From: Peptococcaceae bacterium UBA6096
GTDB taxonomy: Bacteria; Bacillota; Peptococcia; DRI-13; UBA5745
Length of the DNA: 64,000 nucleotides
Assembly: GCA_002435905.1 (NCBI GenBank)
Contig: DIWW01000016.1
Span: 8,389 to 72,388 of the forward strand
Reading direction: 5' to 3'
Shown piece after piece: positions 7,146 to 45,886 of this stretch; position 1 is the first letter of the stretch; each line of letters begins with the position of its first letter. The position numbers and the translations under genes are program-made. Under the pieces are notes generated by a model. That model was not told the origin of the DNA and ran no database searches. It was given only the letters and a program-made list of their open reading frames with translations.

Positions 7146-9122
7146 TCAGCAACCAACCATAGCCTTCCATCCCTCATAGATCATCACCATGGCAAAGGTG
7201 TCCAATTCACAATACTTCAGCAAGGCCTTCTCGATTTCCCCCCGCTCATAATCCGACATCTCTTCAAACTGCATCCTGGCGTAGGCGGTCATGGCAGCGC
7301 CGCCGTCCCGCAATTCATTGGCCGCGCTGAGCAATTCATAATCCTTATCCGAGACATCCTCAAACATTTTAGGCAGCAGCTTATACGGATCCAGCACCTT
7401 GCCATTCTCCATGACGATCCATTGCCAGTCCTTATAGTTCAAACTGGCAATGCCGCCAGCCGCGCCATAGATGGGCTTTGAATATTTTTGCTGCAGATAG
7501 GGAGAGCTGTTGAGGATCGCCGGCAGCACATACTTGATCGAATTTGAGCCTTTGGTGGCGGGATCATAGTAGTATCGCTTTTCCAACTCACAGAGGTCGA
7601 TCATCGAACGCGGCCCCGACCAGGCGTCCACACAGCCGTGGGTCGATGTCGTAATGCTGCGGATAAAGCAGCTCAGTGCCTCCCGATCCGGGATGTCGCT
7701 GGGATCCTCCTGCAGCTGCCTGTAGATCAGGTTCAAATAGCTGTTTTCGTGGGCGGCATAGCGGAAGATGCTGCCTTCGTCCTGCTCCAGTGCCTGCTTC
7801 AGGCTGCGCAAAAAATCATAATTAGGAAACACCCCCGGCACTGCATTCAAATACTGCCCCCGGTGCTCGATCCGACCGTCTGCATGGACCATGTGGTGCG
7901 AATATTGAAAGGCGATCCCTTCATAAGGGTGTCTTCCCTTGTTGAAAGGAATGGCCATCATGGAGGTTTCAAAGTCAATAAAATGCAGCGGATAGATCCA
8001 AGTTTCCATTTCACGGCGCAGATTCTCTGCATCGATCCAATACGTCATGTCGTTGAACTTCGCTTTGCTCACCTGAAGCCATTGACGCTGGCTGGCCGAC
8101 AAGCCCGGTTTTGCGTCGCTTTTGGGATGGATATCCTCCTCCTGAAGGTTCTCCAGCTTGATGCACCGGTCACTCAAATATTGATCTTTCTTCCGGAAAT
8201 TCCAGATCTCCAGAATGTTGGGCTCTTGAAAATCCTCCTCCTCCCAACATAGGCATTCCTTCCAACATTCCTGGAAGCCGCTCTTGAGGCCCTTCGCTGC
8301 ATCCTCCGCAGTGACCTTAAATTCGCAGCCGGCGCATACCTTGGTCAAAACGGGTTGGATTTTCATATCCTTCTCATAGCAATCGGCCAAATAGGCCGCA
8401 TAGTCCCCAAAGCCGGCCGGCTGCCCATCCATTTCATAATTTTCACTGTAAATCATATCGCAGCAGTCATCTGCGTTGATACGGCATAGGATCGGCACGG
8501 AAAGGTCCTCGGCGCTCAGCCTTGGCGATACCGCAATGCTTTTTCTTCCCCTGGCATCCGTTATGATCCGAAACTTCTGGTTCAGACCGTTGGTAGGACA
8601 AAGGGCTTTTTTATCTGCAAGCATCAAGTAGGCCGCCACCGAGCATTCAGGCATTGCCTGCTGGAGGACGTATTTCTGAAAAGCTACATCATAGAGATAA
8701 GGCATCCATTCCGAGGTAATGGAGCCATCTTTATTGAGAAAGGCTGCATCGGAAGGGAATTCCACAGACTTAGCCTTGACCTCCACCAGCTCCAGCCGGG
8801 AACCCTTTTTGATCAGGATATCAACCCGCACAAACAGGTTCTCATAACAAACAGCCGCCTCATAGATGATCGCTTGATCTTGCTTCAGCAGTTCGCTGGT
8901 TTGCCGCAGCGCTTCCCTCTGCTCCAGCATCTTGACGTCATGACCGCCTGGGAAATAATGCTTGGCTAGCTCACCCACCTGAAAGCCCCCTTCGGCCAGG
9001 GCTTCCAGAAAGGAATCCTCCAGCTTCTGGTTGGCGTACGCCGGTTTACCGGTGTAGTAAAGCTTGGTGGGGCACTCCATGGCCAGTTTGAATCGGGATT
9101 TGGTCAAATATCTGGGCTGCAT
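7146..9122 (-). CDS. DUF2779-family protein with N-terminal PD-(D/E)XK (Cas4/RecB-like) nuclease fold and Cys cluster
   Basis: MQPRYLTKSRFKLAMECPTKLYY resembles the typical DUF2779-family N-terminus. RVDILIK...LELVEVKAKS gives D...ExK. Cys cluster CAGCEF...ECWKECLCW. I prefer the start at M25 (9122), which has GAAGG 7 nt upstream; the ORF track start is 9194. Confidence 0.7.
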   Translation of the reverse strand: MQPRYLTKSRFKLAMECPTKLYYTGKPAYANQKLEDSFLEALAEGGFQVGELAKHYFPGGHDVKMLEQREALRQTSELLKQDQAIIYEAAVCYENLFVRVDILIKKGSRLELVEVKAKSVEFPSDAAFLNKDGSITSEWMPYLYDVAFQKYVLQQAMPECSVAAYLMLADKKALCPTNGLNQKFRIITDARGRKSIAVSPRLSAEDLSVPILCRINADDCCDMIYSENYEMDGQPAGFGDYAAYLADCYEKDMKIQPVLTKVCAGCEFKVTAEDAAKGLKSGFQECWKECLCWEEEDFQEPNILEIWNFRKKDQYLSDRCIKLENLQEEDIHPKSDAKPGLSASQRQWLQVSKAKFNDMTYWIDAENLRREMETWIYPLHFIDFETSMMAIPFNKGRHPYEGIAFQYSHHMVHADGRIEHRGQYLNAVPGVFPNYDFLRSLKQALEQDEGSIFRYAAHENSYLNLIYRQLQEDPSDIPDREALSCFIRSITTSTHGCVDAWSGPRSMIDLCELEKRYYYDPATKGSNSIKYVLPAILNSSPYLQQKYSKPIYGAAGGIASLNYKDWQWIVMENGKVLDPYKLLPKMFEDVSDKDYELLSAANELRDGGAAMTAYARMQFEEMSDYERGEIEKALLKYCELDTFAMVMIYEGWKAMVGC

Positions 9123-43740: not shown

Positions 43741-44133
43741 TCATTTGCTGAATTTCAGCATTTCCTTCCACTCCATCAAGGTGTCATGGTCCCTGCTGAC
43801 ATCCTTGATCACCAGGTTTTCAAACCGGCTCAGCCGCTTTCTGGTCAAAACCGCCATCTTCAGGACATCCCTGTTTTGGGTGGTGGTGGTTCCTTTGATG
43901 ATTTCGATAAGGGCTGAGTCATTCACATAGACGATGATTTCCTCAGCCGCGTGATCCTTCAGCTCATTCAAAAGTGTCTGCAAGGCGACTTGGCCTACCA
44001 CCGCCGGCTTTCTGTAGTCCAGCATCAGGGATTTCTTGAAGATCAGCGTTTCATCGCTGAAAACGCAGTATTGTACCTGGATATCCTCACCTTCATAGGT
44101 GGTCGAGATACCTGCCAAATATGCTTTGATCAT
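43741..44133 (-). CDS. Hypothetical 130-aa protein
   Basis: Start at MIKAYLAG with GGAGG RBS 7 nt upstream. No catalytic motif recognised. Confidence 0.5.
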   Translation of the reverse strand: MIKAYLAGISTTYEGEDIQVQYCVFSDETLIFKKSLMLDYRKPAVVGQVALQTLLNELKDHAAEEIIVYVNDSALIEIIKGTTTTQNRDVLKMAVLTRKRLSRFENLVIKDVSRDHDTLMEWKEMLKFSK

Positions 44134-44199
44134 TTGCTGCCTCCGTCTCAATGATTCGTAGGATCGCCCTCCGGGGAGGTGCCCGGCCAACGATTCTGT

Positions 44200-44677
44200 T
44201 TCCTACCCATCAGTATAAACCATCCGGCAAGAATTGTCTGCCTCTGTGTTCAGGCTGGCGCGGCCTTGCTTGCTAAAGATCAGAAATATTCTTTAAAATA
44301 ATGAATTAGAGCAAGCATTTCATGATTCCTGAGGAACCAATCATACTTGCCCTAATCCTTGGGGTGGCTTTGCAACTCTGCATGCCTCCTTAGTGTATTC
44401 CTTGAATTTCGCTTCTGCAGTTTGGTTACTGCTTTGCTACTCTGTTTGCCTGTCGAGCCTTCCGGTTTCTTCTGAGTGCTTGTTCAGGTGATGTTGAGAT
44501 ATATCCAGTTATCTGGAGGATGTGTATCTCAAGGGGGAACCTGGCCACATCTGCAGACTATCCTGTACATTCTCTGTGCAGCCTTGCAGCTTTCACCTTA
44601 GCCTCTTTGGGATTCCTTCTGGTCGGGCAAACTCTTCAAGGTTCCCTAGTACTTTAACTTTCGTTGTTTCCTAGGTT
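44200..44677 (-). ncRNA. Candidate structured RNA or long 5' leader, class unknown
   Basis: No ORF of 60 aa or more in any frame between 44191 and 44944. A near-consensus promoter lies directly upstream. Several stems can be drawn by hand, e.g. GGGAACCU...AGGUUCCC spanning ~125 nt, GAGAUA..UCCAG-AUAA-CUGGA..UAUCUC, and GCUUGCU...AGCAAGC. Confidence 0.3.
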
Positions 44678-44683
44678 GACTTT

Positions 44684-44712
44684 ATTATAAAGGATGAAAG
44701 GGAAAAAAGCAA
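44684..44712 (-). promoter_or_regulatory. Near-consensus sigma-A promoter (TTGCTT-17 nt-TATAAT)
   Basis: -35 at 44707-44712 and -10 at 44684-44689 on the minus strand, with an exact 17-nt spacer counted by hand. Confidence 0.55.
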
Positions 44713-44811
44713 GGGCTTTTGCGCGAATTTTTTAATTATTTATGTTTTTCTGTGTCTTTATTTTTATATATTCTGTTTATTTACAAGAATTAGGGGAGAA
44801 AGAATTAAGAA

Positions 44812-44933
44812 GGGACGGTGACTTTTTGCGCGCCTCGCACAGAAGGGGACAGAGCAAAAAGTGAATAAATCCCGGGGTTTCTTTGCTTTGCTCTGTCCCT
44901 AATCTGCGTCCGCCGCAAAAAGTCACCGTCCCC
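44812..44933. repeat. 122-nt two-tier inverted repeat (19-bp + 13-bp perfect helices) immediately after secF; probable terminator or REP/MITE-like element
   Basis: GGGACGGTGACTTTTTGCG (44812-44830) pairs with 44914-44932. GGGACAGAGCAAA (44846-44858) pairs with 44887-44899. Confidence 0.6.
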
Positions 44934-44947
44934 TAAAAGGTAAAATG

Positions 44948-45886
44948 TTAAGCCTTGGCTGTTTTTCTTGCTTTGCTGAGATCAGCTTTGCGATTCTGCC
45001 ACATGGTCCACAGGGGGCCTGCAATGCAGATGGTGGAGTAGCAGCCGGAGATCGTGCCGAACATCATGGGCAGGGCAAACCGGCGGATGGATTCGATGTC
45101 ATAAATCTGAGCAAAGATATAAACGATGGTGATGCTCAGGAAAACTGCTACGTTGGTGTTGATGGAGCGGGACATGGACTGGTTGATGCTGATATCCACC
45201 AATTCTTCCATGGAGACCTTCTTGCTCATCAGGCGCTCGTTTTCCCGGATCCGGTCGTAAATAACGATGGTATCGTTGATGGAGAAACCGATGATGGTCA
45301 GCATGGCCGCGATATAGGAGTCGTTTAAGGGAATTTTGAAAACAATGAAGGTCGCTGTCACAATGAGGGCGTCATGGATCAAGGCCACAATGGCCATGGC
45401 GCCGGCAGACAGACCGCCGATGTTTCTGAAGCGAATGCCCACATACAGCATGATCAGCAGGAAGGAAAGGCCGATGGCAAACAGGCCGTTTCTAAAGAAC
45501 TTCGCGCCGATAAAAGGCTCAACCGTCAAGGACTCGGCCAGTGCCAGCTTGGAATCCGGATAAGCCGTCAGGATCGTGGCAGTAATGATCTCTTGATCCT
45601 GGGTCGTAATGGCCTCGTTGCTTGCTAAACTCACGGTGATCTTCTGCTCGTCTTTCGCCATGTTGGACTCCAGCAGACAATCGGTGGGTCTTCCGATGGC
45701 TTCTTCGATCAAATCGCCGGTTTTCTCAGCGTCGATGGTGCCTTCGTAGGTATATTTCAGAATCGTGCCGCCTCTGAACTGGATATCCAGCTGGATACCG
45801 TTCACAAACATAGCCACGACCCCCAATAGGATCAAGGCAATGGAGATGGCGAAATAGGTCTTTCTATGCTGATAAAATCTGATCAT
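44948..45886 (-). CDS. secF: Protein translocase subunit SecF
   Basis: 312-aa polytopic protein with a SecF-like sequence. Overlaps the secD stop by 4 nt. Confidence 0.9.
   Translation of the reverse strand: MIRFYQHRKTYFAISIALILLGVVAMFVNGIQLDIQFRGGTILKYTYEGTIDAEKTGDLIEEAIGRPTDCLLESNMAKDEQKITVSLASNEAITTQDQEIITATILTAYPDSKLALAESLTVEPFIGAKFFRNGLFAIGLSFLLIMLYVGIRFRNIGGLSAGAMAIVALIHDALIVTATFIVFKIPLNDSYIAAMLTIIGFSINDTIVIYDRIRENERLMSKKVSMEELVDISINQSMSRSINTNVAVFLSITIVYIFAQIYDIESIRRFALPMMFGTISGCYSTICIAGPLWTMWQNRKADLSKARKTAKA

Follow-up and report, generated by a model that had tools for sequence, protein, structure and literature searches.

A putative structured RNA gene downstream of secF in Peptococcaceae bacterium UBA6096 and its family of relatives with a conserved core and a variable centre

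The locus and its boundaries

The window analysed here is a 64,000-nucleotide (nt) stretch of contig DIWW01000016.1 of Peptococcaceae bacterium UBA6096 (positions 8,389 to 72,388 of the forward strand); positions without a contig name refer to this window. On its minus strand, a gap separates secF (stop at 44948) from the next gene, which starts with ATG at 44133 and is followed by a gene for an RluD-type pseudouridine synthase. An earlier note, made from the sequence alone, had described this gap as free of coding sequence and had proposed that it gives rise to an unclassified large RNA or a riboswitch-like leader. There is indeed no open reading frame (ORF) of at least 60 codons in 44190-44947, the only long frame in the gap being a TTG-extended form of the downstream gene, which reaches to 44190. 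Within the gap lies a putative RNA gene of about 380 nt (44295-44677, minus strand; 383 nt), which is conserved, folded and without a match in Rfam.

The predicted promoter occupies 44684-44712 on the minus strand and consists of a -35 box TTGCTT (44712-44707), a 17-nt spacer and a -10 box TATAAT (44689-44684), as the earlier note had pointed out. It is kept as TTGATT-17-TATAAT in a genome of the same genus (G001) and in a metagenome copy of the RNA (L038, identical to L039), and more distant relatives have TTGACA or TTGATT, again with 17 nt to TAnAAT, at the equivalent position. A simple promoter scan missed the site because TTGCTT fits TTGACA at only three of six positions. Directly upstream, an A/T-rich element (AAUUAAAAAAUUCGCGCAAAAGCCC, 44713-44737, minus strand) resembles an UP element, and a block of the form AAAWTTC...AAAA precedes the -35 box at the same position in all 17 aligned promoters; it may be one. 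With near-consensus sigma-70-type boxes and this UP-like element, the promoter would be a strong one.

We placed the 5′ end of the RNA from the -10 box and its 3′ end from a terminator-like hairpin with a U-run, both ends thus being predictions. The hairpin, P6 (44295-44358, minus strand), comprises a 15-bp stem (GGAUUAGGGCAAGUA / UGCUUGCUCUAAUUC) and an apical hairpin and is followed by AUUAUUUU. It has the properties expected of an intrinsic terminator, namely a G+C-containing hairpin with a U-run directly after it, at the point where conservation stops. It was not listed by a simple terminator scan, which required a loop of 3-8 nt and at least five T in the tail. Both G001 and L038 keep the RNA up to this long hairpin and the U-run behind it, and the RNAs of other relatives have UUUU(U) at their 3′ ends. 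Between the window and G001, identity is 84.6% within 44683-44295, compared to 47% upstream of the RNA, 49% in the 160-nt downstream spacer and 73% in the adjacent protein-coding gene. These limits of conservation and the terminator-like hairpin put the 3′ end near 44295, and the RNA is therefore about 380 nt long, not 480-540 nt as had been estimated.

Two of the helices that the earlier note had drawn by hand fall into this 3′ region. The helix AUGAUU..GGAAUCAU corresponds to the apical part of P6. In contrast, the 7-bp helix GCUUGCU/AGCAAGC has to be given up, as it uses the 3′ strand of P6 and pairs it with an unconserved partner downstream of the RNA. The same note had been uncertain about the transcribed strand on account of a plus-strand element TTGCTA-18-TAAAAT. 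This site is present, but it sits in the terminator and trailing region and is mostly different in G001. The promoter, the terminator-like hairpin, the G-U pairs described below and the z-score of the fold all point to the minus strand.

Helices and covariation of the predicted RNA

The minus-strand RNA folds to -112.4 kcal/mol with a z-score of -3.57, and none of 100 shuffled sequences was as good; the z-score of the plus strand is -1.71. Six helices, P1 to P6, are all contained exactly in its unconstrained minimum free energy (MFE) fold. A search of related genomes followed by covariation analysis, both of which had been suggested at the outset, yielded homologues with compensatory changes in P1, P2, P3, P5 and P6. 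Such changes support every core helix.

P1 is a hairpin at the 5′ end (44645-44675, minus strand), formed by a CCUAG/CUAGG stem already noticed earlier, an internal loop GAAAC/AAAGUA and an AAC-GAAA-GUU cap. Across 13 sequences, 92.3% of the cells are paired and all five pairs have changed on both sides, a covariation score that none of 500 shuffles reached. Even within the genus of the window, compensatory changes are seen in three of the five pairs (CCUAG/CUAGG, CCCAA/UUGGG, UCCAG/CUGGA). The GAA/AGUA part of the internal loop may form an S-turn.

P2 is a long-range helix between CCUUGAA (44635-44641, minus strand) and UUCAAGG (44400-44406, minus strand), the former pairing with 44406-44400. 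The strands are 235 nt apart in the window RNA and 200-480 nt apart across the members of the family. In 16 sequences, 97.3% of the cells are paired and six of the seven pairs have changed on both sides; the observed values were reached by none of 500 shuffles, and slid registers pair at most 55%. The variants comprise CCUUGAA/UUCAAGG in the genus of the window, which has a U-A pair where most members have C-G (CCCUGAA/UUCAGGG), GCCUGAA/UUCAGGC in G041, ACCUAAA/UUUAGGU in G045 and more in further members. An 8-bp helix GGGAACCU/AGGUUCCC, previously thought to close a domain of the RNA, is broken by one or two mismatches in the two relatives nearest to the window, and the covarying P2 competes with it; we have discarded it.

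Inside P2 lies P3, which pairs GUUUGCC (44626-44632, minus strand; with 44450-44444) with GGCAAAC (44444-44450, minus strand) in the covariation analysis as well as in the MFE fold. In six sequence types, whose strands were picked by hand, 97.2% of the cells are paired and six of six pairs have changed on both sides. P3 encloses a central domain of 175 nt (44451-44625, minus strand), which can be aligned only with G001 and one metagenome copy. In the other members, the centre is of unrelated sequence, about 60 to about 400 nt long, and cannot be aligned between lineages. The window's centre contains a hairpin UCCAG-AUAA-CUGGA, which was originally drawn as the inner part of a larger helix, GAGAUA[..UCCAG-AUAA-CUGGA..]UAUCUC; this inner part is plausible, and only its loop varies in relatives.

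On the 3′ side of P3, a junction (AGAGUAGC, 44443-44436) leads into the hairpin P4 (GCAG-UAACCAAA-CUGC, 44432-44417), the two together covering 44417-44443 on the minus strand; P4 is present in the MFE fold. P4, too, had been recognized in the earlier note. In several member types and in the paralogues of the same genome, the equivalent position is taken by AGUAG(G/C) and, after it, by a hairpin that differs in sequence.

P5 (44363-44390, minus strand) and P6 form the 3′ module. In P5, an AGGAGG box resembling a Shine-Dalgarno (SD) sequence (44390-44385) is paired with GCCACC and encloses the hairpin UGCA-GAGU-UGCA, which contains a UUG at 44375-44373; it corresponds to helices 1-3 of the 3′ module as aligned from 18 sequences, and it is found in the MFE fold as well. 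Over these sequences, the module has 90.7% of its cells paired and 26 of 32 pairs changed on both sides (0/500 shuffles), with the P6 stem contributing 13 of 15 pairs changed on both sides at 97.8% paired. The covarying helices contain many G-U pairs, which identifies the minus strand as the transcribed one.

An automated alignment of the 5′ module with MAFFT, evaluated with RNAalifold, gave no structure, the 3′ strand being misaligned, and hand-anchored segments were used instead.

Members, paralogues and known RNA families

At the level of BLAST, relatives yielded nothing beyond G001 and, in a genome from another taxonomic family, a piece of 115 nt. More members were obtained with covariance models of the 3′ piece, built from 3 (R1), 6 (R2) and 18 (R3) sequences. 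With these, full-length members were found in 11 of the 88 genomes of the window's class, and an even sample of the phylum gave hits in 16 of 401 genomes, one of the 16 being false; a second class contributed five true members from 112 genomes. Some hits (L010-L012, L043-L045, L053) proved, once read, to be terminators after coding genes and were dropped. A pattern scan of the genome collection gave no credible match beyond the class, as hits in Dialister, Azospirillum and Bacteroidia failed to score with the covariance model. The family occurs patchily across the phylum, which is probably Bacillota_B/Desulfotomaculota, spanning 16 taxonomic families with the same architecture. Its carriers, with records such as "Peptococcaceae bacterium", "Firmicutes bacterium HGW-Firmicutes-12" and "Clostridia bacterium", are mainly poorly studied anaerobes known from metagenome-assembled genomes.

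R3 also found four more copies in the genome of UBA6096 itself, about 300 nt each and all beyond the 64-kb window (loci L054-L057; C8:165946-166054, plus strand; C8:171594-171702, plus; C24:66479-66588, minus; C21:37697-37800, plus). The two copies on C8 are near-identical duplicates 5.6 kb apart, including an upstream terminator. The window RNA is the largest of the five, and G001 likewise carries a second copy.

Members are about 300 to 622 nt long, and those of full length share the same order of elements from 5′ to 3′. An A/T-rich block is followed by a promoter (TTGACA-like, 17-nt spacer, TAnAAT) and an RNA that starts with UCAAYC. The internal loop of P1 has GAAAY on its 5′ side and (A/G)AGUA on its 3′ side in most members. 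P1 is followed by CCCUGAA (CCUUGAA in the window), 2-3 nt later by GUUnnn and then by the variable centre, after which come nnnAAC, AGUAG(G/C), the P4 hairpin, AAA-UUCAGGG (UUCAAGG in the window) and an A-rich linker. The 3′ part consists of AAGGAGG, which pairs with a C-rich strand and so encloses a small hairpin (P5), and of P6 with its U-run. The stem of P6 is unusually conserved in sequence across members (AAAGGGUAAGC...GCUUACCCUUU). One truncated member (L006, 1501-1640, minus strand, in G016) comprises the 3′ module only, at about 125 nt, and lies between purC and a lipoprotein gene; it has a promoter-like TTGTTT-17-TAGAAT and a UUCAGGG strand without obvious 5′ partner.

In Rfam 15, the only match in the window at the gathering threshold was a lysine riboswitch elsewhere (RF00168, 26745-26917, minus strand, 118.7 bits). 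At E ≤ 10, the region 43900-45000 gave only miRNA and snoRNA noise far under threshold, and at E ≤ 1 there was no match on the RNA in 19 loci of relatives and paralogues. The models for OLE, ROOL, GOLLD, raiA, HEARO, T-box, the riboswitches and Clostridiales-1 were all among those without a match on the RNA. The scan that the earlier note had proposed thus returned no family for the RNA in the window, its relatives or its paralogues, and the view that it is none of RNase P RNA, transfer-messenger RNA (tmRNA), 6S RNA or a T-box is borne out by model searches.

Three of these RNAs are found elsewhere in the genome. RNase P RNA is at C16:33635-34002 (RF00010, 314.6 bits), and ARAGORN places a single tmRNA on contig C9, the window RNA having no tRNA-like domain. 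6S RNA scores above the cut-off (RF00013) on C16 and in 17 of 18 carrier genomes. It resembles the window RNA in being encoded by a stand-alone gene with a strong-looking promoter of housekeeping type and, presumably, in working through binding to a protein machine, but 6S RNA is a rod of about 185 nt with a central bubble, whereas the window RNA is about twice as long and forms a multi-branch junction. A T-box leader was rejected because RF00230 did not match and the downstream genes are unrelated to aminoacylation; the strand order of the GAA/AGUA loop in P1 is presumably opposite to that of the specifier-loop S-turn.

We found no description of such an RNA in the literature. Absent from Rfam 15 and from the literature found, the RNA would represent a new family or class. 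Its closest counterparts in kind are the orphan large non-coding RNAs of Firmicutes, raiA motif RNA, OLE and ROOL, which are likewise stand-alone genes of several hundred nt with a covariation-backed multi-helix fold, have no conserved coding partner on the transcript and do not reveal their function through gene context. The window RNA matches none of their Rfam models, though, and its family differs from them in being conserved at the ends only, around a hypervariable centre, in having up to five paralogues per genome and in its 3′ box resembling a ribosome-binding site (RBS) with a micro-frame. Unlike OLE, the window RNA has no oapA-like neighbour gene.

Gene context, the 3′ module and the reading of the family

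The genes next to the RNA differ between lineages. In the window and in G001 they are the hypothetical gene and the gene for the RluD-type synthase, and in one subgroup a DUF4931 gene and a PALP/TrpB-like gene; other members neighbour genes for a beta-CASP RNase or a Mg-chelatase-like ATPase, purC and a lipoprotein gene, tRNA genes, groEL or gltD-like genes. Promoter-like sequences precede the downstream genes. That flanking genes are unrelated between lineages and that the downstream genes have promoter-like sites of their own points to an action in trans. Pfam returned nothing for the protein encoded directly downstream in the window (43741-44133, minus strand, 130 residues), and its only resemblance, to RNase HI in NCBIfam, is faint and below threshold (E = 0.0034, 17 bits where the cut-off is 300). 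The protein is conserved in G001, with the gene order unchanged.

Several further features of the surroundings were observed. Directly after secF, a 122-nt two-tier hairpin (44812-44933) resembles a repeat element or the terminator of secF and lies outside the RNA; G001 and the metagenome copy have a similar hairpin (GGGGACGGGG...CCCCGTCCCC) at the equivalent position ahead of the RNA promoter. In L007, L008, L009, L016 and L017, the RNA is divergent from the DUF4931 gene, and the common spacer contains a palindrome-like ACGAATTTTnnAAAAATTC and a CGAACAAT box. In UBA6096, the DUF4931 homologue (C16:32742-33491) lies immediately downstream of the gene for RNase P RNA (C16:33635-34002). In L033, L034 and L041 (genomes G318, G419 and G480), the RNA gene follows closely behind tRNA genes that have terminators of their own, a stable-RNA neighbourhood.

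A striking regularity of the family is found in the 3′ module. In 29 of 29 members, an AGGAGG-like box is followed after 7-11 nt by UUG (23), CUG (5) or GUG (1), and in none by AUG. The frame set by this codon closes after 6-11 codons in all 29, compared to 10 of 58 cases in the remaining two frames. The stop codons always lie at the base of P6 or in its 5′ strand, in at least eight contexts (GGG UAA/UAG, GGA UGA, GAG UGA, GCU UGA, GGU UAA, GAU UAG, GAA UAA, AAG UAG). In the window, the frame is UUG CAA AGC CAC CCC AAG GAU UAG (44352-44375, minus strand; seven codons and a stop) and would encode MQSHPKD. Across members there is no conservation of the peptide (MQSHPKD, MQYDLE, MHILTGKG, MEYHLEGKG and others), save for residues dictated by RNA helices. 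The conservation of codons 2 and 3 is explained by RNA pairing, since a covarying hairpin takes its 3′ strand from them and its 5′ strand from outside the frame. Both the SD-like box and the start codon are sequestered in P5. We would read this regularity as an RBS-like, ribosome-addressable module rather than as a peptide gene, while granting that it may be either.

From these results, we favour, with moderate confidence, the reading that 44677-44295 on the minus strand is a stand-alone, structured RNA gene present in multiple copies, belonging to a family whose core is invariant while its centre varies, and that the transcript, once released at P6, acts in trans. In the mechanism that we propose, release at P6 followed by action in trans is the most likely course. 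In the conserved core, P2 and P3 stack as long-range helices and, with P4, form a junction that closes off the variable centre. The invariant core (the P1 loop, the P2/P3/P4 junction and P5/P6) could serve as a scaffold that a shared partner recognises, be it a protein or the 30S subunit, and the variable centre would confer on each paralogue its own specificity. The sequestered 3′ module would serve as a gated site for binding of ribosomes or of a protein, and its opening to ribosome binding may change the activity or the stability of the RNA.

Several points weigh against this reading. The ends of the RNA, its abundance and its very transcription are deduced from sequence. The alignments of P1, P2 and P3 are hand-extracted segments joined by an artificial GAAA linker, the register of two or three members was picked by complementarity, which inflates the counts, and the alignment of the 3′ module was fitted to the model; the shuffle statistics are further inflated by kinship among the sequences. 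For the central 175 nt, the fold is a thermodynamic prediction, as just three near-identical sequences align there, a metagenome scan with a window-type pattern having yielded only two identical copies close to G001. The distribution is patchy, with other genera of the same taxonomic family lacking a hit, which would be odd for a core function. Finally, neither a partner protein nor a consistently linked gene emerged.

A first alternative is a dual-function RNA or small mRNA, in which the module is a genuine translation unit and the large 5′ domain a sensor that opens and closes the RBS; translation could melt P5 and P6, altering the stability of the RNA or its termination, or the tiny peptide could itself be the product. 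The box, spacing and start codon in 29/29 members, the closure of this frame in all of them, against 10 of 58 for the others, in at least eight stop contexts and the sequestration of SD box and start codon, as in regulated RBSs, all speak for it. Yet AUG is never used, one subgroup has CUG throughout, the peptide is unconserved and codons 2 and 3 are accounted for by hairpin pairing. Moreover, many members share the GGGUAA/G stop by descent, so that the 29 cases amount to far fewer independent events. To our knowledge, no stand-alone function attaches to peptides of 6-11 residues here. The dual-function small RNAs SR1/SR1P of B. subtilis and RNAIII/hld of S. aureus are alike in combining a structured regulatory RNA with an SD sequence and a short ORF, but the frame in this family has only 6-11 codons, never starts with AUG, encodes no conserved peptide and ends in the terminator stem. 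Leader-peptide attenuators also bring SD sequence, very short ORF and terminator hairpin close together, and translation is expected to disturb the hairpin; this family, however, has no conserved downstream gene and no runs of regulatory codons, and its unit is placed at the 3′ end of a structured RNA of 300-600 nt. On balance, we regard a translation unit of this kind as rather unlikely. We put forward just as tentatively a bolder form of the gated module, namely that this is a new class of RNA in which long-range helices close off a large domain that varies between paralogues, and this domain controls whether ribosomes reach a built-in RBS and a frame of 6-11 codons running into the RNA's own terminator hairpin. 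It would be the loading of the ribosome, and not the peptide, that switches the activity or lifetime of an RNA acting in trans, or the RNA would titrate 30S subunits, with several specialised paralogues per genome.

The remaining explanations fare worse. A CsrB/RsmZ-type RNA that sequesters CsrA, with UUCA(A/G)GGAA and AAGGAGG, about 13 nt apart, binding a CsrA dimer and the paralogues titrating the protein, would account for two conserved GGA motifs at a suitable spacing and for the several paralogues per genome; the genome of UBA6096 has csrA, and so do 9 of 11 carriers of the class as opposed to 29 of 77 non-carriers, a comparison confounded by lineage. This enrichment is probably a lineage effect, because csrA is near-universal in the window's order (28 of 34 genomes) whether the RNA is present or not. 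CsrB-type RNAs have many GGA motifs in hairpin loops. The family shares with these sponges multiple paralogues and conserved GGA-containing blocks, but has only about two conserved GGA sites, both base-paired (in P2 and P5); what is conserved in it are helices and junctions rather than repeated motifs, and carrier G045, which is 99% complete, has no csrA hit. We consider CsrA sequestration improbable. For Hfq, a tblastn search of the genome with a B. subtilis sequence gave no match, which is a weak negative.

Even less probable is a cis-acting leader, a riboswitch or attenuator that would govern read-through into the hypothetical gene (44133-43741) and the pseudouridine synthase gene. These genes are on the same strand, with the terminator-like hairpin in between, their order is identical in G001, and four members of another subgroup have a PALP/TrpB-like gene downstream on the strand of the RNA. 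However, a terminator-like hairpin of its own ends the RNA about 160 nt ahead of the next start codon, the intervening spacer is unconserved (49%), and it contains a promoter-like site with a conserved -10 box (TATACT, 44217-44212), consistent with the next gene having its own promoter. The downstream genes vary by lineage (hypothetical and rluD, TrpB-like, beta-CASP RNase, Mg-chelatase-like ATPase, lipoprotein, genes on the opposite strand), the five paralogues in one genome have unrelated neighbours, and no conserved alternative antiterminator pairing was seen. The leader half of the original proposal thus appears already largely refuted by context. Its other half, a candidate unclassified large RNA, is supported by a conserved, structured and covarying sequence without a match in Rfam 15. 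Least probable of all, to the point that we give it hardly any weight, is that there is no RNA gene and that the locus is a conserved DNA-level regulatory region or a stem-rich spacer by chance. In its favour stands that transcription is deduced from sequence. It would have to explain compensatory changes in four separate helices, one of them spanning 235 nt, G-U pairs whose counterparts on the opposite strand would be A-C, a promoter and a terminator-like hairpin at the edges of conservation, and the same architecture in 16 taxonomic families.

Few large, well-structured classes of bacterial RNA are still undescribed, and 6S, OLE, raiA and ROOL each began a line of work. The family offers clear boundaries, strong covariation including a long-range helix over 200-480 nt, a modular organisation into core and centre, paralogues, and a 3′ RBS-like box with its micro-frame; judged by size and completeness of the genomes, carriers may include cultured strains, so the family should be testable. 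Should the 3′ module truly recruit ribosomes, it would link a regulatory RNA to translation in a new way.

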